Assembly (NCBI RefSeq): GCF_053078305.1 | Contig: NZ_CP166878.1 | DNA from: a plasmid | Reading direction: 5' to 3' (one strand) | DNA length: 32,715 bases | In this document: piece after piece, positions 1,923-31,885 of the stretch | Position numbering within the stretch: the first letter of the stretch is position 1 | Layout: every line of letters starts with the position of its first letter | The notes under the pieces: generated by a model | Told to the model about the DNA's origin: nothing | The model's database searches: none | What the model saw: only the letters and a program-made list of their open reading frames with translations | Translations under genes and position numbers: made by a program

Positions 1923-2987
1923 ATGGATAAAAAGACAAAAACATATCCTTTTGGTGACATTGAGTTTTTTGACCAGTTAGAGGAACATGCATGGGACCAG
2001 ATTCATGATGGTATGCTACCAATTATGGATTTGTATCTTGATCCGACAGTAACCGATATATTTATAAACAGGTATGACAATATATATACATCTGTCAATG
2101 GCAAGTATGTAAAGACCGACAGTTCCTTTTCCAGTGAACGGGCACTTAAAGCCTGGATTGATCAAATCGCAACGGTGTTGAGGCAGCCATTTTCAACGTC
2201 AGGAAACTATAAATATGGTGATGTCATTGAGCCTGTACTTGATGCCCGATTTCCCGATGGTTCCCGGTTGATGTGTACAGACCCGGTGATTTCACCGCAG
2301 GGTTCTACGGTAAGTCTTCGTAAAGTACCTAAGCAAATACTGGAAGAAAAAGATTTTATAAATTCCGGTATGTTGACGAGAGATATTCTTGATTATCTCA
2401 TTAGTGTTATACAAAAACGGAAAAATTTTATTGTTGCTGGTAATACTGGTTCTGGCAAAACATCACTTTTACGCTTGCTCGCCAGGTATATTGATACGAT
2501 GGAGCGTGTTATCACCGCCGAAGACACTCAAGAACTTCATATACACAGGTATTTTCCGTTAGGGATTGCTCTGGAAGCTGCACATCGTAAAGATGTGAAT
2601 GCGGATCTTCCTTCTCTGGTTCACCTGACTATGCGTGGTAATCCCGATCGTGTATGGGTTGGGGAGGTAAGAACGGCAGAGGCTATAGCTGCTTATTACA
2701 TGGTTCTGGCAAGTGGAACTATAGGTAATGCTACAACTCTGCACTCCGTTACCCCTATGGGGGCAATACGCAAAATGACCTGGCTTATGTCAAGCTATCT
2801 CAGTATCGATTTTCAGATAGCTCAGGATTTAATTATGTCAGAGGTTGACGTGATTATTCAGTGCCGGAGAACATCAAAGCATGGAAGAAGAATTACAGAT
2901 ATCGTCGAAATACGTGAAGGGAAAATTGTTCCTATATTCAAGTTTGATGAAGAGCAAGAAGTACATGTCAGGTTTGACAAAAAATGA
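1923..2987 (+). CDS. virB11: VirB11-family secretion ATPase
   Basis: 354-aa ORF; Walker A GNTGSGKTS, downstream ITAEDTQEL and conserved His-box region typical of VirB11/TrbB traffic ATPases; ATG at 1923. Confidence 0.9.
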   Translation: MDKKTKTYPFGDIEFFDQLEEHAWDQIHDGMLPIMDLYLDPTVTDIFINRYDNIYTSVNGKYVKTDSSFSSERALKAWIDQIATVLRQPFSTSGNYKYGDVIEPVLDARFPDGSRLMCTDPVISPQGSTVSLRKVPKQILEEKDFINSGMLTRDILDYLISVIQKRKNFIVAGNTGSGKTSLLRLLARYIDTMERVITAEDTQELHIHRYFPLGIALEAAHRKDVNADLPSLVHLTMRGNPDRVWVGEVRTAEAIAAYYMVLASGTIGNATTLHSVTPMGAIRKMTWLMSSYLSIDFQIAQDLIMSEVDVIIQCRRTSKHGRRITDIVEIREGKIVPIFKFDEEQEVHVRFDKK

Positions 2988-3000
2988 ACATTTAGCATTA

Positions 3001-3080
3001 TATGCTTATATGCTTATATGCTTATATGCTTATATGCTTATATGCTTATATGCTTATATGCTTATATGCTTATATGCTTA
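3001..3080. repeat. Perfect tandem octamer microsatellite (TATGCTTA x10)
   Basis: Ten uninterrupted head-to-tail copies of TATGCTTA directly readable in sequence, starting 14 bp after the virB11 stop. Confidence 0.95.
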
Positions 3081-3105
3081 TATCATTGTGTTTGTGTGAA
3101 ATATT

Positions 3106-3299
3106 GCTGTAACATCGACGGTCTACGACCACCTACCACCTGAATAGCTGTAGGTTCCGTGCGGTCAGGCTTGGCAGGGGGCTGACGCGGTTCCTGGCGA
3201 CATGAAACTCCCTGGTTAGGGGTATCGGCGCGACCTGGCATCTGTGACTCTATAAAGCCATTTTTCGCGCCTTCCATGCCGCTAAAGCGGCATATTCCA
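3106..3299 (+). repeat. 194-bp repeat family, copy 1 (upstream of ccdA)
   Basis: Near-identical to 18900-19093 and ~90% identical to 3962-4155; begins GCTGTAACATCGACGGTCTACG and ends with hairpin ATGCCGC-TAAA-GCGGCAT then ATTCCA. Confidence 0.9.
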
Positions 3300-3366
3300 C
3301 ACTTCTAGATCCGGGGTTTTGGGTATATGCTATGTTTATATGCATAATTTATGTGGGGGGCTTGTT

Positions 3367-3612
3367 ATGAGAACAAATGTGGCAGTAAAAAAACGTAGTA
3401 TAAACGTATACTTAAATGCAGGGTTACTTGAAGAAGCAAAAGATCTTGATCTGAATGTTTCTGCTATCTCTAACAAAGCTCTCGAAAAAGCGGTAAGGGA
3501 GCGTAAGCGTGAACGCTGGATAGAAGAAAACCGTGCTGGCATTGAGGCATTAAACCGTTTTGTAGAAGATACCGGGATTTTTTCAGATGATGAAAATTTT
3601 GGGGTAATTTAG
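3367..3612 (+). CDS. ccdA: CcdA-family antitoxin
   Basis: Recognisable similarity to F-plasmid CcdA (VNISxxxxxxxxEARRxRAERWxxEN...FADENRDW pattern: NVSAISNKALEKAVRERKRERWIEENRAGIEALNRFVEDTGIFSDDENFG); ATG 3367 preceded by G-rich RBS; stop overlaps ccdB start. Confidence 0.85.
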   Translation: MRTNVAVKKRSINVYLNAGLLEEAKDLDLNVSAISNKALEKAVRERKRERWIEENRAGIEALNRFVEDTGIFSDDENFGVI

Positions 3613-3929
3613 TGAAACAATTTTCTGTCTACAAGAACAAATCGCGAAATAAACAGGCGTACCCCTATTTTATTGATATACAGGCAGAGATGCTTGCACA
3701 CCTTAACACCCGGTTGGTGATGCCTTTAACGCCAAAAGATAATTCAAACTCGCAGGTAAAGACGTTAACGCCAGTAATAAACATCAACCAGGTAGATTAT
3801 GTGGTTCTGACTACTATGATAACGACAACGGATGCAAAAAATCTGAACTCTGATAATGTCGTTATGGATGCTTCATATTTACGAGATCAACTGGTTTCTG
3901 CAATTGACATGATGATTCTGGGTATTTAA
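3612..3929 (+). CDS. ccdB: CcdB-family gyrase-poison toxin
   Basis: GTG start overlapping the ccdA stop by 1 nt; protein begins MKQFSVYKNKSRNKQAYPYFIDIQ and ends MMILGI, matching the CcdB family pattern ([21 protein letters not shown] ... LMFWGI). Confidence 0.85.
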   Translation: MKQFSVYKNKSRNKQAYPYFIDIQAEMLAHLNTRLVMPLTPKDNSNSQVKTLTPVININQVDYVVLTTMITTTDAKNLNSDNVVMDASYLRDQLVSAIDMMILGI

Positions 3930-3961
3930 TTTTTGCAGGGTAGTAAATAGTAAAAAATATC

Positions 3962-4155
3962 GCTGTAACATCGACGGTCTACGACCACCTACCAGCCGAG
4001 TGGCTGTCTGTTCCGTGCAAATGGGCTTTGCAGGGGGCTGGCGCGGTTCCTGGCGACCTGAAAGCCCCTGGTTAGGGGTATCGGCGCGACCTGGCATCTG
4101 TGACTCTATGAAACCATTTTTCGCGCCTTCCATGCCGCTAAAGCGGCATATTCCA
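3962..4155 (+). repeat. 194-bp repeat family, copy 2 (downstream of ccdB)
   Basis: Same length and ends as copy 1; about 20 substitutions clustered in hairpin-forming segments, several compensatory. Confidence 0.9.
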
Positions 4156-4233
4156 AACTTTGGAGCAGTTCTGCAATGTTGTTTGAATTGTTTCGTAGTC
4201 GTATCATTATTTTTTATGTGATGATTGTTTTTT

Positions 4234-4560
4234 TTATGTGTCTGACATTTTTCCAATCATGATTTCTGTGAGATTTGTATCAGCAAAATCTCCTTTCCCC
4301 GATTCAGTGTCAAAGTCGCCTGGCGTGAACTTATGTACGTCTTGCCAGACTGCGAAGCAGGTAGGGCATGTTACAGGTAGTTCGCCCTCCGCTATCTTTT
4401 CACAACTTTCTACCAGTTCTTGTTTCTCGTTGTACCTGATGTTATAGCCGCTTGTGCAAAGCGTTTCATACCCGTGAGCGCCCGTCACTATATGTGTGGC
4501 GGTTCTTTCTGTGATTTTTCCATCAACTAATAACTGTTCATGCGTTGTGATCGTTTGCAT
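4234..4560 (-). CDS. Hypothetical Cys-rich protein (108 aa)
   Basis: ORF with CxxC-type cysteines (CTSGY...CEKIAEGELPVTCPTC); no family recognised; lies between repeat copy 2 and the virB3-like gene. Confidence 0.45.
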   Translation of the reverse strand: MQTITTHEQLLVDGKITERTATHIVTGAHGYETLCTSGYNIRYNEKQELVESCEKIAEGELPVTCPTCFAVWQDVHKFTPGDFDTESGKGDFADTNLTEIMIGKMSDT

Positions 4561-4704: not shown

Positions 4705-4717
4705 GGGGGGGGGGGGG
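4705..4717. repeat. Homopolymeric G13 tract in divergent intergenic region
   Basis: 13 consecutive G read directly, 71 bp upstream of the virB3-like start. Confidence 0.9.
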
Positions 4718-4787: not shown

Positions 4788-5120
4788 ATGGCTGAAATAA
4801 AAGGAAAAATAACCAATCCCGCACTGGTTAATGCAAAAGTTTTTTACAACAGACGAACAAAGCTGGGGATACCTACAGAGGTCTTTTTGATCCTGATGTT
4901 CCTGAATGTTTTTGCTGTTGTGCTGTGTGTTATGTATTTCAGCACATTTTCCGTTATTTCGCTGATTTTATTTGTTCTGGTATCGGTTGTTCCTATGAAG
5001 TTCGTTTTTCATGGCGATCCCGATGCTCATAAAGCTTGGATTTATGGTTATTTGTCACCTTCCAGGCTGAACAATACCCACGCAGTGAAGCGTCGTATCA
5101 CATTTATAGACGCTATTTAG
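4788..5120 (+). CDS. virB3: VirB3-like small inner-membrane T4SS protein
   Basis: 110 aa, hydrophilic N-terminus then one long hydrophobic region (GIPTEVFLILMFLNVFAVVLCVMYF...); position immediately upstream of pilin and VirB4 genes. Confidence 0.55.
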   Translation: MAEIKGKITNPALVNAKVFYNRRTKLGIPTEVFLILMFLNVFAVVLCVMYFSTFSVISLILFVLVSVVPMKFVFHGDPDAHKAWIYGYLSPSRLNNTHAVKRRITFIDAI

Positions 5121-15665: not shown

Positions 15666-15818
15666 CTACGGGGATGATAATACCCATGAGGTTGATACTT
15701 GGCAGAGTCAGCTTGTGGGCATTATCAGGGGACTATAAAAGCCCATTTAAATTGTATTTAAATCATCCGGTAACGGCAAGAAAAATAATGTGTCATTCAG
15801 GCATAAGTGCAGGGCCAT

Positions 15819-16787
15819 ATGATTAGTCCGGCAATTGATTATTTTGCGGCAAACTTGCCATACCGACCTTATCACGCGAATGAATTGCTCTATGGGCTTC
15901 GTATCGATAAGGCAGCTAAAGCAGTGCTGGCGCGTTATATACAGCATAATCCACCTCATGCAATGTACTGGCTTGTTTTTGACGTTGACAGGCCAGTTGC
16001 GGCGATTGACTGGAATGATCTTAATGCGCCCACACCTAATTTTACGGTCAAAAATCCGGTTAATGGTCATGCACACCTGTTTTATGGGTTAAAAACGGCA
16101 GTTCGTGTTGCCAAAGACGGTAGCATTAAGGCGATCGAGTTTGCTGCTGCGGTAGAGCGAGGATTACGTGACAAACTTAAATCAGATATCGGCTATGCAG
16201 GGCTGATCTGTAAAAATCCTCTCCATACATGCTGGCAGGTTGTTGAATGGCGTGGAGAACTTTATGAGTTAGCTGAACTGGCTGATTATGTTGATTTGTA
16301 CGCGTCAACAGCGGCTAACGATGAACAGGCATTCGATATCGACTTTAGTTATGGGCTTGGGCGAAATTGTTGGCTCTTCAATCTGACCCGTATCTGGTCA
16401 TATACAGCAATCCGGCAGGGCTGGCCTGATTTCCCGCAATGGAAAGAAGCGGTGATTCAGCGTGTCGAAATGTATAACGTGCAGTTAAGCGTGCCTTTGT
16501 CTCACAAAGAATGTGTATGCATTGGCTCCAGCATCGCCAAATGGACGCATAGACGCTTCACTGAAGCTGGATTTGAGCAATATGTAGCTGATACCCATAC
16601 ATCAGAAATTCAGGCTCGTAGAGGGCGTAAGAATCGCTCAGAAGTGCAGGCTGCTAAGGGGCGTAAAGGTGGGAAAATATCTAAAAGAGGGATTGTTGAG
16701 GATTCTGCGCGGAGTTTGAAACCGTGGGTAGAGTTAGGGATCAGTCGGGCAACCTATTATCGACGTAGGGCAAATGAGACCAAATAA
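15819..16787 (+). CDS. ColE2-type plasmid replication initiator (primase-type Rep, Replicase family)
   Basis: N-terminal region YRPYHANELLYGLRIDKAAKAVLARYIQHNPPHAMYWLVFDVDR is characteristic of ColE2-like Rep proteins as I recall them; basic HTH-like C-terminus; origin-like sequence overlaps the stop. Confidence 0.65.
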   Translation: MISPAIDYFAANLPYRPYHANELLYGLRIDKAAKAVLARYIQHNPPHAMYWLVFDVDRPVAAIDWNDLNAPTPNFTVKNPVNGHAHLFYGLKTAVRVAKDGSIKAIEFAAAVERGLRDKLKSDIGYAGLICKNPLHTCWQVVEWRGELYELAELADYVDLYASTAANDEQAFDIDFSYGLGRNCWLFNLTRIWSYTAIRQGWPDFPQWKEAVIQRVEMYNVQLSVPLSHKECVCIGSSIAKWTHRRFTEAGFEQYVADTHTSEIQARRGRKNRSEVQAAKGRKGGKISKRGIVEDSARSLKPWVELGISRATYYRRRANETK

Positions 16788-17293: not shown

Positions 17294-17340
17294 GGGGCGT
17301 TGAAAACGGAAAATAACCCACGCTAAGACTGTTTTTTAAC
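17294..17340 (+). repeat. Tn21-subfamily-like inverted repeat, left arm
   Basis: GGGGCGTTGAAAACGGAAAATAACCCACGCTAAG matches the inner 25 bp of the Tn21 IR (remembered ...CAGAAAACGGAAAATAAAGCACGCTAAG); inverted partner at 18563-18609. Confidence 0.6.
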
Positions 17341-17649
17341 CAGGCTATGATAATGCTATCTGTGACGGATGATGGTCGTTGCTCTTTTGTTAATGCTAAC
17401 GGATGCGTACATTAGCATTAACTTTTTGTGTTATGTTGCACGTGAATTTTTGAGTTTTAATATTTATATAATGTTATGAATATTAAAGATAAATGATGAA
17501 CATGCTTTGTGATGGCTTTTGGCGCATAGATTGATCTTAAGATCTGCGCATGTTATTTTTATGCGGTTTTGACGAATTTATAAGGGTAGGACGTTCCCGT
17601 AACAGCGTCCAGGGGAGGGGGTAGCGAATTTATAGCCCCCGGAATGCAA

Positions 17650-17710
17650 CAACCCCCTGATATCTCTCTTAGAGCTTTTGCGGGGCCAAAGAAGATAATC
17701 AGGGGGTCCA
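17650..17710 (+). promoter_or_regulatory. Long stem-loop in repA leader (candidate antisense-RNA target)
   Basis: Arms CCCCCTGATATCTCTCTT / AAGAAGATAATCAGGGGG around an 18-nt loop containing GCCAA (one base off the conserved IncFII/IncB loop hexamer); location upstream of leader peptide and repA. Confidence 0.45.
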
Positions 17711-17743
17711 AAGCAGGCTTTTGCCTGTAAAGGATTATAGCAA

Positions 17744-17800
17744 ATGCATTTTTCAATACAAGACTACTGCCCGGCAATAAGTGCGGGCGGTGGTGGCTGA
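17744..17800 (+). CDS. Leader peptide overlapping repA start (translational coupling candidate)
   Basis: 18-codon ORF MHFSIQDYCPAISAGGGG whose stop lies 17 nt inside repA, the arrangement seen for tap/repY-type leader peptides. Confidence 0.45.
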   Translation: MHFSIQDYCPAISAGGGG

Positions 17801-18506
17801 AAAGAACAATTCCTTAATCCCCCGCATATCGCCGTCAGGGGTGGCCAAACAAAGTCCATGCTATAACGTTGTGTCGCGTAAGCGACGCCGTTTCCTCAAT
17901 CGCTGGATTAAATCGCTGGCGACGGTCGCTGGGCGTGTCAAAATCAAAAACGAACTCCGCCGCCGTATCCGGCATAACCGATATTGGGTTAATGAGGCTA
18001 ACAAGTTTGGCATAGAGGCACTTTGCGAACTGATGTTAGCTATCCTGGATGATCTCGATTTACGCTCCTGGGAAACCAGGCATAACCTCGAAACACTGGC
18101 AGAACGTGCCGGACTGGTGACACGCAGTGACGCGGGGCGTAAATCTATTTCCCGTGCCAGTAGGGGATGTGATCGCCTGGTCTGGTTGAATGCGATCATT
18201 ACAGATAAAGCGCCGTTTAACCCCTATGATGCACGGTGTGCCTGTAAACACATTGAAGTAACCGAAGACTTCTTTGCCATACTCGGCATTCCGTTAAAAC
18301 TGGTTTATCGGGAACGTGCCAGGCTGTTAAAGGCAGATCCTAATGAAATGATTTACTCCGGGGATGCCAGACTGATAGCTATCAGAGTCCAGAACTGGAC
18401 ACGGAAAGCGGCAGCCGGATTAGCCCGGATGAAAGCGAAACGCGACGCAGCTCGACAACGCAAAAAAGAATATTACGCTCACCCACCTACCCCTATTCCG
18501 GTCTGA
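17781..18506 (+). CDS. repA: IncFII-family replication initiator RepA
   Basis: Segment LETLAERAGLVTRSDAGRKSISRASRGCDRLVWLNAIIT aligns with the RepA1 core of R100-type proteins (SITTLAIECGLATESAAGKLSITRATRALTFLSELGLIT); GTG start right after an in-frame stop. Confidence 0.75.
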   Translation: MRAVVAEKNNSLIPRISPSGVAKQSPCYNVVSRKRRRFLNRWIKSLATVAGRVKIKNELRRRIRHNRYWVNEANKFGIEALCELMLAILDDLDLRSWETRHNLETLAERAGLVTRSDAGRKSISRASRGCDRLVWLNAIITDKAPFNPYDARCACKHIEVTEDFFAILGIPLKLVYRERARLLKADPNEMIYSGDARLIAIRVQNWTRKAAAGLARMKAKRDAARQRKKEYYAHPPTPIPV

Positions 18507-18562
18507 TACAGGCTAACTTACCGCCTTATGGGGCGGTGTATCGCCACGTCCATAATAAAAAG

Positions 18563-18609
18563 CTGTACAAAAAATAGTCTTGGCGTGGGTTATTTTCCGT
18601 TTTCCATGC
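18563..18609 (-). repeat. Tn21-subfamily-like inverted repeat, right arm
   Basis: Reverse complement reads GCATGGAAAACGGAAAATAACCCACGCCAAGACTATTTTTT, matching the left arm over ~36 bp with 2 mismatches; outer GGGG is absent. Confidence 0.6.
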
Positions 18610-18659
18610 TCAGAAAAGAGCAGTTATAAGCTGTATCATTGGGTAAACAATGCACAGGT

Positions 18660-18668
18660 TGTGGATAA
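18660..18668 (-). promoter_or_regulatory. Consensus DnaA box (TTATCCACA)
   Basis: Forward TGTGGATAA is the exact complement of the 9-mer consensus; lies about 150 bp downstream of repA. Confidence 0.5.
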
Positions 18669-18705
18669 TCATACTTAAAGTGCAAACGATATGCCGCAAT
18701 TACTC

Positions 18706-18750
18706 TTTTGCTTCTCTTTTAGTTACTTACGTACTAAAAGAGAAGCAAAA
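18706..18750. repeat. 18-bp perfect inverted repeat with 9-nt spacer (origin-region hairpin candidate)
   Basis: TTTTGCTTCTCTTTTAGT - TACTTACGT - ACTAAAAGAGAAGCAAAA; no T-run on either strand, so not a terminator. Confidence 0.8.
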
Positions 18751-18899
18751 AAGAAAAACATTACTGTTATCCCCTTTAACAAGTGAATAACCTAAAAACA
18801 TCGGCGCAAGCGCCTCAAAAGTAGCACCCCTCGCAAGCTCGGGGCATTAGAAACAACAGCATCCCATCATCACAATCGAACTATTATTCATCTATCTTC

Positions 18900-19093
18900 G
18901 CTGTAACATCGACGGTCTACGACCACCTACCACCTGAATAGCTGTAGGTTCCGTGCGGTCAGGCTTAGCAGGAGGCTGACGCGGTTCCTGGCGACATGAA
19001 ACTCCCTAGTTAGGGGTATCGGCGCGACCTGGCATCTGTGACTCTATAAAGCCATTTTTCGCGCCTTCCATGCCGCTAAAGCGGCATATTCCA
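18900..19093 (+). repeat. 194-bp repeat family, copy 3
   Basis: Differs from copy 1 by only a few substitutions; same orientation; sits between the repA origin region and the next gene. Confidence 0.9.
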
Positions 19094-19196
19094 TAAGAAT
19101 TTACATGAGCGTATACTTTATAATCAGTATCAATGAAAGTTGCTTGTCCAAATCAGGGGCAACAATCGCATCAAATAACTTGCGCAGGTGAAAATT

Positions 19197-22404: not shown

Positions 22405-22536
22405 TATACAATCACTTGATTCGATAATTATAAAATTAAGTGATTTTATGATTGCATGATTCTATGAGCATGGGATTATTAGAATGTTTGGCAGAGGTAC
22501 TATGTGAACAAAGGGGAGGGGAAAATGCCTAAAGTT
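22405..22536 (+). repeat. Orphan duplicate of par promoter-operator plus first 4 parA codons
   Basis: About 94% identical over 132 bp to 24844-24975, including RBS and ATGCCTAAAGTT, then diverges; the operator inverted repeat is degenerate in this copy. Confidence 0.85.
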
Positions 22537-22614
22537 GGAGCAGCGGGAGCGTTCGAACAGAGACTTACGGTTTCGTTCTTTGTGCAGCAGTTGAAACCGT
22601 AATTATTTGTTTTA

Positions 22615-24843: not shown

Positions 24844-24963
24844 TATACAATCACTTGATTCGATAATCATAAAATCAAGTGATTTTATGATTGCATAATT
24901 TTATGAGTATGAGATTATTAGAATGTTTGGCAGAGGTACTATGTGAACAAAGGGGAGGGGCAA
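24844..24963 (+). promoter_or_regulatory. par promoter-operator (candidate centromere/operator)
   Basis: Perfect 12-bp inverted repeat AATCACTTGATT ... AATCAAGTGATT plus reiterated TGATT motifs directly upstream of parA. Confidence 0.6.
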
Positions 24964-25587
24964 ATGCCTAAAGTTATAGCATTTTTAAATGGTAAGGGGG
25001 GGGTGTCTAAGACAACCTCGGCAGTCAATATTGCTACTGCTCTTGCTCGTAAGGGATACAAAGTTGTCGTTGTGGATACCGATCCTCAGGGAAGTGTTAG
25101 TAACTGGTATGATGACAGTAAGTGTGTTTTTGATGTAGCAGAAGCTACGACAGAAAAAGAAATTTACCGTTTGCGGAAGGCGCTTCCTTTGCACGATTTT
25201 ATCATTATTGATGGTGCTGCGGCGATTTCGGCGATATCGGCAGCTGCTGTTATGGTTTCTGATCTTGTCATTATCCCAGTTACTCCTTCGCCGCTTGATT
25301 TTGCTGCATGTGGCGCGATATTGGCAGTGATAGAAGCTCGGCAGGATTTACGCCCGGTGATTGCTCGCTTTTTGATTACTAAAAAAGTACAGCAAACGCA
25401 TATGCTATCTTTGCTGAAAGAATCTATTGCAGAAACAAGCATACCAGCATTAAAAACAGGAACGTCGTACAGGCAGTCATATATAAAGTCTATGCTAGAT
25501 GGTGGTACTATATTTGATACAAAAGATAGTGCTGCTAAAGGTGAAATATCAGTCATTACAGAAGAAATACTTGGACTATTAAAATGA
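24964..25587 (+). CDS. parA: ParA-family partition ATPase (ParF-like)
   Basis: Deviant Walker [19 protein letters not shown]; ATG 24964 with GGGGAGGGG RBS (ORF track begins at upstream GTG 24943). Confidence 0.9.
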
Positions 25588-27349: not shown

Positions 27350-27720
27350 GTTATTTCTCCAGTTTTGCAAGATGTTCACGGTATTCATTATATACTGCAT
27401 TATAACGAATACACTATAATTTCCAGAAGAACAGGGCTATTTAACATAATGGACGTTATCAGCACCACCGGATCACAGTTCGTTGTCAGATCTGAAAAAT
27501 CCGCTCAAAAGATCATGTTTTCCTGGGCGTTTTTCGTCGTTTTTTATGTTGCTTATTTGTTAATAAAATCTCGTTTCTTGTTTTGGCTGAATTTGGATGT
27601 GAAAGCCTTATATTTGCAAGTTATCCGGTGAAGGGAGGTAGCCGAGACTGAGGATTGATTGTTTTGTACAAGTTCTAATGCATAATGTGTACATATAGTA
27701 GCGTTAGCATAGGGCGTAGT

Positions 27721-30676: not shown

Positions 30677-30692
30677 GCATGATTTTTGGGAG

Positions 30693-30721
30693 AATTGCCC
30701 TCTGATTATCAGAGGGCAATT
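30693..30721. other. 29-bp palindrome (AATTGCCCTCTGAT-T-ATCAGAGGGCAATT)
   Basis: Perfect 14-bp arms; weak T-run, so a terminator or protein-binding site is equally possible. Confidence 0.6.
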
Positions 30722-30974
30722 TGTCATTGGTAGTGCCTATTACCGTTAGTTATGATCACGAAAAACGCGATGATTGTTCATTACAATGCCCTATCGTTAG
30801 ACAGGACATGTGAGCGTTTTATCAACAACGTAAGCAGAATTTTTTGCAGAAATGATCCTGCATCAATACTGAAAATCGTTGTTGTCTTACATGTGTTAAA
30901 CATGATTTTTTAGTCAATTTCATAACAAAATATACCTACGTTTTTTTGGGAAGTCCTCTTACTGAACCAACAGA

Positions 30975-31885
30975 AAGAGGACGAAAAAGAGGAAACATGA
31001 ATGTTTCCTCTGCCATGTTACTACCGTGAATTTTCAGCTACTTATCTGTACTGGTTGCCTCCAGTATTTTCAGATTCATCTACAGACTTCGGCTATATCG
31101 TCTGTAGATTTTTGCGCCTACTCGTTCACTCTCCCACACTCAGGAATGTAATTTCGGTGCCACCCGAAATTTTCCAGAGTGCTTCCCACGTTAGCTGATC
31201 TTGTCGGGATAACCCGCCACTGGCTCAGACAAACTACTAGGCTACGCCTTACCATTTCTGGCTTTCAGGGGGCCGAGATTCCAAAGCACCTCCCTTACTC
31301 ATAATTTGCCGTCAACACCATAGCCAGACACTTAAGTCATGGCTGGTTATCACTTACCCGAATGCGACCTCTTCGGACGCAATTACAGGCTTGAGCTTTA
31401 CAGCGATCTGCAAAGGTTGCCCCTCACAGTACCGACGTTTCCAGGTTTCCCCTCAACGCCCTGACACCTCACGATGCCCTCAGCAGCCCACCTGTCGGGA
31501 ATATGTTGTACCTTCTCAAGCACCCCATATTCGGGATTTTCACCCGTTCAAGATCAACAGGGATCACGTAGTCACCTACGTTCCCGTTTCCGTGTCGCCC
31601 AGTCTCACGCTTTGGCGTGGATTGGGTCGGACAGGGGAGTTTCACCCCCGAACGCCCTTCGTAGCCGTACCAGCCCAATTACAGGCATACGGCTTCGGCA
31701 GTAACTGTTATCAGGGTTGGCAGTCCTGATAACTCACCTTCGTTTGGCAGACGAAGGCTTTTGGCTTTTTTCGTCTTTCGACTTCCCAAAAATGCGTCGA
31801 GAGTTGGCAGCTCGCAACGCACGTTTTGTTACGTAAGCGATGCTTGATAGTCCGGCGCCCGAAAGGCTCGCATCGAGCCGGACAT
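30975..31885 (-). ncRNA. Candidate ~900-nt structured non-coding RNA (unclassified)
   Basis: ORF-free, G-rich on the minus strand; minus-strand sigma70-like promoter (-35 TTGCGC, 17-bp spacer, -10 TATTAT at 31918-31890) and a minus-strand terminator (GAGGAAACAU-UC-AUGUUUCCUC then UUUUU) at 31003-30975; many internal hairpins. Confidence 0.3.

Follow-up and report, generated by a model that had tools for sequence, protein, structure and literature searches.

The window, by which we mean the whole 32,715-nt plasmid stretch analysed here (NZ_CP166878.1, numbered from its first letter), carries a ccdAB-type toxin-antitoxin (TA) module that lies between two direct copies, A and B, of a 206-nt element, and a third copy of this element, C, is found downstream of the plasmid's repA gene. 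An earlier note on this DNA had pointed to the two flanking repeats and had read them as the ends of a captured or excisable cassette. The features of the ccdAB locus are the following.

1923-2987, plus strand: VirB11/TrbB-type ATPase gene, left neighbour of the cassette (NCBIfam/Pfam-type family search)
3099-3304 (core 3106-3299), minus strand: copy A, a proposed primase-dependent priming signal (G site) whose template would be the minus strand of the window (repeat search; profile E 2.5e-61; family alignment)
3175-3177, minus strand: CTG of copy A in the minus-strand reading, inside the conserved block CCCCCTGCCAAGCC; proposed primer start
3305-3366, plus strand: region upstream of ccd, putative promoter/operator, similar to the Klebsiella ccdAB locus from about 3329
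3367-3612, plus strand: ccdA antitoxin gene, 81 codons (NCBIfam CcdA NF010264, E 8.9e-11; annotated as CcdA family in relatives)
3612-3929, plus strand: ccdB toxin gene, 105 codons (NCBIfam CcdB NF010262, E 8.5e-12, full length)
3955-4160, minus strand: copy B (repeat search and alignment), with its CTG at 4031-4033 on the minus strand, in CTGCAAAGCC
3995-4071, no strand assigned: 77-bp tract of copy B, matching a 4.2-kb small plasmid (L003) at 72/77 positions against 61/77 for copy A
4234-4560, minus strand: conserved 108-codon open reading frame (ORF), right neighbour of the cassette, annotated in all relatives (NCBIfam: no family)

Copies A and B are direct repeats with 90% identity over 206 nt, at a spacing of 856 bp (repeat search of the window), and such a match far exceeds chance. 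The two same-orientation 194-bp copies of the earlier note, at 3106-3299 and 3962-4155, were indeed recovered as the core of the element family within this longer repeat, and the corresponding core of copy C (18900-19093) has 98% identity to copy A and runs in the same direction. A profile search of the window returned exactly these three copies, all in one orientation. Neither terminal inverted repeats at the element ends (repeat search) nor a target duplication in the flanks of the three copies was found. A tandem array of the 8-bp unit TTATATGC (2998-3085; 10 perfect units here, 3 to 17 among the ten relatives considered below) begins 10 bp past the virB11-like stop codon and stops about 13 bp short of copy A, and the octamer also occurs once at 3341-3348, with a 7/8 variant at 3328-3335, both upstream of ccdA.

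In the ccdAB of the F plasmid, CcdB is a gyrase poison and CcdA its labile antitoxin, the two giving post-segregational killing. The pair found in the window has two small genes with the antitoxin gene first, and ccdB begins with a GTG that overlaps the stop codon of ccdA. Against the CcdA and CcdB models, the matches were full length and reached 42-45 bits, below the curated cut-offs of 100-147, and judged from these models the window ccdAB is a distant member of the CcdAB family. At the DNA level, ccdB is conserved with at least 99.2% identity in 13 E. coli plasmids, and the other nearest ccdAB loci, on Klebsiella and Pantoea plasmids, show 78-81% identity (Klebsiella 80%). The earlier note had placed ccdAB, bracketed by direct repeats, within the operon of the type IV secretion system (T4SS). 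The bracketing stands, but the placement in the operon is imprecise: T4SS genes resume only at 4788, beyond the reverse-strand ORF 4234-4560, and ccdAB occupies an intergenic gap, with the virB11-like gene and this 108-codon ORF (orf108) converging on it, rather than a place in an uninterrupted operon. There is also a run of 13 G (4705-4717; 12 or 13 G in relatives) ahead of the T4SS block, between its start at 4788 and a TTGACA-like hexamer; it could be a slippage-prone tract or a sequencing artefact.

The locus was compared in the window and in ten related plasmids of 27-35 kb, all set in the same orientation. The arrangement A-ccdAB-B, with identical junctions, is found in seven of these relatives, and the remaining three (CP088743.1, CP088440.1 and NZ_AP046548.1) carry one copy of the element and no ccdAB, in an interval shorter by about 856 bp. 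The single-copy form that the earlier note proposed to seek in related plasmids thus exists, and a uniform arrangement in all relatives, which it held would refute its reading, is not what was found. The surviving single copy is chimeric, being of type A at alignment columns 7 and 81 and of type B at columns 159 and 202 and in the right flank, and the crossover in the deletion variants may lie anywhere between columns 81 and 159. In a tree of the 14.3 kb T4SS block (449 variable sites, midpoint root), two deep clades each contain ccdAB-positive plasmids. The three ccdAB-less plasmids are separated from one another by 8-11 single-nucleotide polymorphisms (SNPs) over the 14.3 kb and are placed beside the window, NZ_CP124463.1 and CP061000.1, from which they differ at 92-114 positions, these three ccdAB-positive neighbours differing among themselves at 97-104 and the other ccdAB-positive clade being 201-272 differences away. 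Since the single copy is chimeric and its clade is nested, one homologous crossover between the repeats would account for the loss, with no extra mutations needed, and these sequences fit a deletion of ccdAB that occurred once, in the lineage of the three sequenced plasmids. The precise removal of ccdAB by recombination between the repeats, which the earlier note had predicted, is what these 856-bp-shorter relatives document. In the complete RefSeq genomes of E. coli, ccdAB is present on 13 plasmids of the family and absent from 1. In NZ_CP124463.1, an IS3-family insertion in the 3' end of ccdB (window-equivalent about 3871-3887) has removed the last 14-19 codons or so, which would disarm the module in a second way.

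The reverse course of events, in which the single copy is ancestral and a circular or linear segment with ccdAB and one element copy integrated at the resident copy, so that the three ccdAB-less plasmids would be survivors of the original state, is in our view unlikely, though more probable than the other alternatives. Some event must indeed once have made the duplication, and a circle with one copy would yield this very structure on integrating; the four differences between A and B could be post-duplication mutations; and the closest other ccdAB, the Klebsiella homologue with 80% identity, sits about 1 kb downstream of a diverged element copy. On the other hand, the ccdAB-less plasmids form a single very tight clade nested among ccdAB-positive ones, and an ancestral single copy would require an unlikely position of the root. 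No small plasmid or other replicon with this ccdAB beside the element was found, and the Klebsiella and Pantoea homologues have no close flanking copies of it, the Klebsiella plasmid holding only diverged partial copies in the profile search. Moreover, 6 nt and 4 nt of flank are common to copies A and B but absent at copy C, and this suggests that the duplication arose locally rather than by import. Of the captured or excisable cassette of the earlier note, we therefore retain a segment excisable by homologous recombination, but a captured mobile cassette is not supported. In the Klebsiella plasmid (K. pneumoniae NZ_CP032210.1, L009 numbering), the diverged element copies, near-identical to each other, lie at 231-299 and 2995-3063, direct and 2.76 kb apart; they flank a J-domain protein gene and three small ORFs, the ccdAB homologue lying about 1 kb downstream.

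The flanking copies also bear a trace of exchange with other plasmids. Compared with each other, they are 97-98% identical in ten relatives and 90% identical in the window, the lower value being due to the 77-bp tract of copy B (3995-4071), which resembles the 4.2-kb small plasmid more than copy A. The rest of copy B shows the opposite affinity, with 82/84 positions matching copy A and 57/84 matching the small plasmid. No such small-plasmid-like tract was seen in the 10 relatives compared, and it has the look of gene conversion with a co-resident small plasmid as the donor.

Some plasmids have sites to which DnaG, the primase of the host, is recruited (PMC4595007), and ssi-like (single-strand initiation) sequences have been noted in small plasmids (PMC6854812). 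On the grounds of homology and of the literature, we consider it likely that the element is a priming signal of the plasmid type that depends on primase (a G site or G4-type ssi). A nhmmer profile built from seven close family members only matched R100 (L013 46148-46222), about 780-850 bp downstream of repA (E 1e-3), and R64 (L011 2196-2331), about 700-850 bp downstream of repZ (E 9e-5), two origin-side loci which we take to be the published G sites. The same profile matched R100 a second time, between the DUF932 gene and the SLT (transglycosylase) gene beside the origin of transfer (oriT; E 3e-6), as well as the two repeats of the Klebsiella plasmid. When the profile was broadened, with the oriT-side sequence of R100 already in it, the equivalent oriT-side place of the F plasmid was matched (E 1.5e-29). 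Read on the minus strand, the window element and all these relatives have in common a 5' hairpin followed by GGAAGGCG, then CC.CCTGC.A.CC and GCACGG. The CTG is invariant, being found in all seven family members (7/7) and likewise in the relatives from R100, R64 and Klebsiella; 5'-CTG-3' is the triplet at which E. coli primase begins. In copy B, CTGCAAAGCC, which begins at this CTG, is identical (10/10) to positions 3996-4005 of phage G4, in whose record the complementary-strand primer is annotated at 3970-3997 and the origin at 3998; copies A and C match at 9/10 positions, as do the versions from the 24-kb plasmid, R64 and Klebsiella. Rfam searches of the window, the cassette region and two small plasmids, in gathering and E-value modes, gave no family for the element and returned PK-repBA only, elsewhere.

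These features are in keeping with what is described for such sites. A G site lets DnaG alone make a primer on single-stranded DNA coated with SSB, and in one orientation only. Masai and Arai are said to have described, in 1989, a G site at which primase alone primes the leading strand of R1/R100, and descriptions of plasmid G sites or G4-type ssi signals reportedly include one by Tanaka et al. in 1991. A study by Nomura et al., also of 1991, reportedly found G4-type ssi signals near origins and in the leading regions of F and R100, and Tanaka et al. are said to have noted in 1994 that plasmid G sites share conserved blocks, with only a short homology to G4 around the primer start.

The element has a wide distribution. 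It was found in 608-648 plasmid-collection records and, among 5426 complete E. coli genomes, in 714 (about 13%), mostly on 1.5-kb Col(MG828) plasmids, and also on 4.2-kb plasmids, a RepL plasmid and a 24-kb MOBC/MPF_T conjugative family. The replication proteins that accompany it are of at least three different kinds (RepA-type, the Col(MG828) helix-turn-helix (HTH) protein and RepL), which points to a host factor, rather than a plasmid protein, as the more likely user of the element. Given its presence beside repA, in the 24-kb backbone and on hundreds of plasmids of 1.5-4 kb, and given its diverged relatives at the R100 and R64 origins and beside oriT of R100 and F, a reading of the repeats as ends of a dedicated cassette is not supported. 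In the window, the replicon to which copy C belongs comprises the following features.

17651-17778, plus strand: PK-repBA regulatory pseudoknot (Rfam RF01089, 86.4 bits)
17781-18506, plus strand: repA, IncFII/LM-type (NCBIfam RepA_IncFII_LM, E 2e-14)
18893-19098 (core 18900-19093), minus strand: copy C, assigned to the replicon module and lying some 395 bp downstream of repA, with its CTG at 18969-18971 on the minus strand

The region 17600-19093 aligns as a single block, with 89% identity, to the backbone of the unrelated 24-kb plasmids, where the element lies about 380 bp downstream of a RepA-family gene, as with copy C. Because copy C belongs to a contiguous shared block and has a fixed place after repA, we regard it as part of the replicon module. 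Its CTG block lies 302 bp beyond a DnaA-box-like site at 18660, the corresponding distance from the oriR DnaA box in R100 being 543 bp, and with the minus-strand CTG downstream of the end of repA (18506), primed synthesis would run away from repA.

A different origin-associated cis site that merely resembles G sites, such as one where the primosome assembles with PriA, where replication ends or pauses, or where a plasmid protein binds, would share part of this evidence, and we hold it to be improbable. Homology with R100 and R64 indeed speaks for shared ancestry and not for which host factor acts. Moreover, the terminal hairpin contains AAGCGG on the plus strand, a hexamer known from n'-type sites, and the Col(MG828) element lies about 115 bp beyond a stretch that, by our reading, resembles the primosome assembly region of ColE1. 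Against such a site stand the invariant CTG in the best-conserved block and the 10/10 match to the G4 start site, as well as the place and orientation relative to repA, which agree with the leading-strand start of R1/R100; the unrelated Rep proteins argue against the site of one plasmid protein.

A dedicated cassette system (integron attC, a Xer/pdif module or duplicated oriT/nic sites), with ccdAB as a circular cassette, is very improbable. The geometry, with cargo and one repeat making up 856 bp, is as expected from a site-specific system, and TA genes are common cargo of integrons and pdif modules. However, the repeats contain no XerC/XerD core within 3 mismatches, the sole such site of the window being at 27439-27463, and neither an integrase nor a relaxase was found near the cassette in the family search of window proteins. 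Judged by eye and not by an attC model, there is no attC-like inverse core/core pair (RYYYAAC ... GTTRRRY), and the ends GCTGTAAC... and ...ATTCCA do not fit. A long palindrome was not found either. A ColE1-type oriT was considered and rejected: in the 1.5-kb plasmids, the nic region (L005 1370-1435, which we take to be such by comparison with the ColE1 sequence) is apart from the element (295-471). Other cargo between such repeats was not seen, and the spread of the possible crossover over columns 81-159 is as one would expect of homologous recombination. As for a non-autonomous mobile element (a miniature inverted-repeat transposable element (MITE) or the remnant of an insertion sequence (IS)) or a small-protein or small RNA gene, the high copy number of the element across plasmids, the minus-strand ORFs 3083-3277 and 3879-4256 that span it and the 'rep protein' annotated in some small plasmids can be cited in its support, but it is hardly credible given that terminal inverted repeats and target duplications were not found, that the position in the replicon module is fixed, that no Rfam family matched and that indels between family members shift the frame, which rules out minus-strand protein coding (their lengths not being multiples of three: the RepL plasmid has 11 nt inserted, and R100 and R64 have larger indels).

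From a mechanistic point of view, the account that we favour, as a whole with moderate confidence, is that of G-site-type repeats between which ccdAB can be deleted by homologous recombination, and which exchange sequence with small plasmids. The element would act in cis and on one strand only: once the minus strand is single-stranded, host DnaG would begin an RNA primer at the conserved CTG, from which DNA synthesis would proceed rightwards. Copy C would be the replicon's own site and, by homology with the R1/R100 site, would prime the leading strand of the RepA replicon. A second site, which every family member has in the gap from the virB11-like gene to orf108, may by analogy match the oriT-proximal sites of F and R100, which strand reasoning would place on the transferred strand. 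This second site is duplicated in most family members, with a self-contained ccdAB module between the copies, and a primer made at the CTG of copy A would extend rightwards through ccdAB. The 206-bp direct repeats allow ordinary homologous recombination to delete ccdAB together with one copy, and the same homology would permit exchange with co-resident small plasmids. In line with general knowledge of TA modules, the toxin should select against cells that lose ccdAB, which may be why most family members keep the module. The priming activity, the strand transferred in conjugation and the way in which the duplication first came about are inferred.

Several points weigh against this account. The ori-proximal matches in R100 and R64 are weak (E 1e-3 to 1e-4), and no more than a half to two-thirds of the element is covered by them. 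With G4, the element shares a short motif that was noticed after the fact, and there is no BLAST-level similarity between the two; BLAST against phages including G4 returned three short records only (1.4-1.9 kb), apparently misfiled small plasmids. The terminal hairpin is retained with differing stems (ATGCCGC/GCGGCAT and ATGCCC/GGGCAT), and the support from folding and covariation is weak, predicted folding being ordinary (z score about -1.7 on either strand) with 2 of 37 predicted pairs covarying in the family alignment. The direction of loss hinges on the midpoint root and on four diagnostic sites, and recombination between plasmids could distort the tree. Lastly, no relaxase or oriT was identified, so that a role in conjugation can be ascribed to copies A and B only by analogy: Pfam and NCBIfam were uninformative for the 234-aa and 621-aa proteins, which show no similarity to a MobC relaxase. 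A cluster of short inverted repeats at 30690-31110 is a candidate oriT only. The plasmid family is typed as non-mobilizable by MOB-suite, despite a full VirB-like T4SS and a coupling-protein-like gene.

If the account is right, a puzzling repeat is explained as a replication element that annotation pipelines and Rfam leave unlabelled. The locus would then offer, as far as sequences can tell, a documented natural loss of a TA module by recombination between two copies of a proposed cis element, and it would point to sequence exchange at this element between a conjugative plasmid and small co-resident plasmids, as the tract in copy B suggests. No new mobility mechanism is revealed; what the locus shows is plasmid evolution of an ordinary kind, without a novel cassette system. 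If the minus strand is the one transferred, the primer from copy A would make ccdAB duplex first in the new host and thus allow its early expression, which, if true, would be a primase-based counterpart of the single-strand promoters known from F-like leading regions. That the priming sites act as portable homology for the exchange or shedding of modules, or that they time early ccdAB expression in recipients, is a speculation to which we give little credence.

Other features of the plasmid and of the small carriers deserve mention. Two initiator genes are adjacent in the window, at 15807-16787 (a 326-aa 'replication initiation protein' with no NCBIfam match) and 17781-18506 (the IncFII/LM-type RepA), and the plasmid may have two replicons. 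The PK-repBA/repA unit is surrounded by 59-nt inverted repeats (17297-17355 and 18551-18609; 80% complementary). A good XerC/XerD-type site, GCTGATAACGTCCATTATGTTAAAT, is found at 27439-27463 on the minus strand; its XerD arm is perfect, it departs from the dif-based pattern by 2 mismatches (0/100 shuffles), and it is probably the multimer-resolution site of the plasmid, unrelated to the repeats. Direct repeats of 138 nt with 93% identity (22405-22542 and 24844-24981), each with an internal inverted repeat, lie 2.4 kb apart; they bracket several small ORFs and stop just upstream of a ParA-like gene (24943-25587). In the Col(MG828) plasmid (L005), the ORF annotated 'rep protein' (1-585) runs across the priming-signal element and also crosses what we presume, by eye, to resemble the ColE1 primosome-assembly region; this annotation is probably spurious, and the replication protein is more likely encoded by the HTH-domain gene of the opposite strand (667-1143). 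In NZ_AP045792.1 (E. coli, 32,327 bp), 7 places match the two-copy query; its true copy number is uncertain, and this record is possibly a small-plasmid multimer or an assembly artefact.

Compared with the plasmid G sites and ssi signals that lie downstream of oriR in R1 and R100, near ori in ColIb-P9 and beside oriT in F and R100, the element shows profile-level homology to the R100, R64 and F loci at the places expected, conserved blocks, an invariant CTG and a place a few hundred bp downstream of an IncFII-type origin, in the orientation that sends synthesis away from repA, and several copies per plasmid share one orientation, as in R100. It differs from them in that the window version resembles the origin sites of R100 and R64 only distantly, with partial coverage, and belongs to a subfamily carried mainly by small E. 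coli plasmids (1.5-4 kb), and in that one site is duplicated around a TA module in the window plasmid. With the phage G4 origin it shares CTGCAAAGCC, identical in copy B, and a hairpin on the 5' side of the template; unlike G4, which has three strong stem-loops (z score -5.65), the plasmid element folds no better than shuffled sequence, and there is no wider similarity.

The ccdAB pair resembles that of the F plasmid in gene order, in the overlapping stop and start, in its 81 and 105 codons and in its full-length model matches, but it has distant scores and lies in a T4SS intergenic gap and not beside the replicon. The 206-bp direct repeats, the precise natural deletion of 856 bp and the chimeric survivor recall the repeat-bounded, RecA-dependent deletable modules of other plasmids, with the difference that the repeats of the window are copies of a proposed priming signal and not IS elements or dedicated sites. 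To our knowledge, a TA module between duplicated priming sites has not been described as such. The arrangement nevertheless needs no new mechanism, its parts being of known kinds: the G-site/ssi family, CcdAB and deletion between direct repeats.

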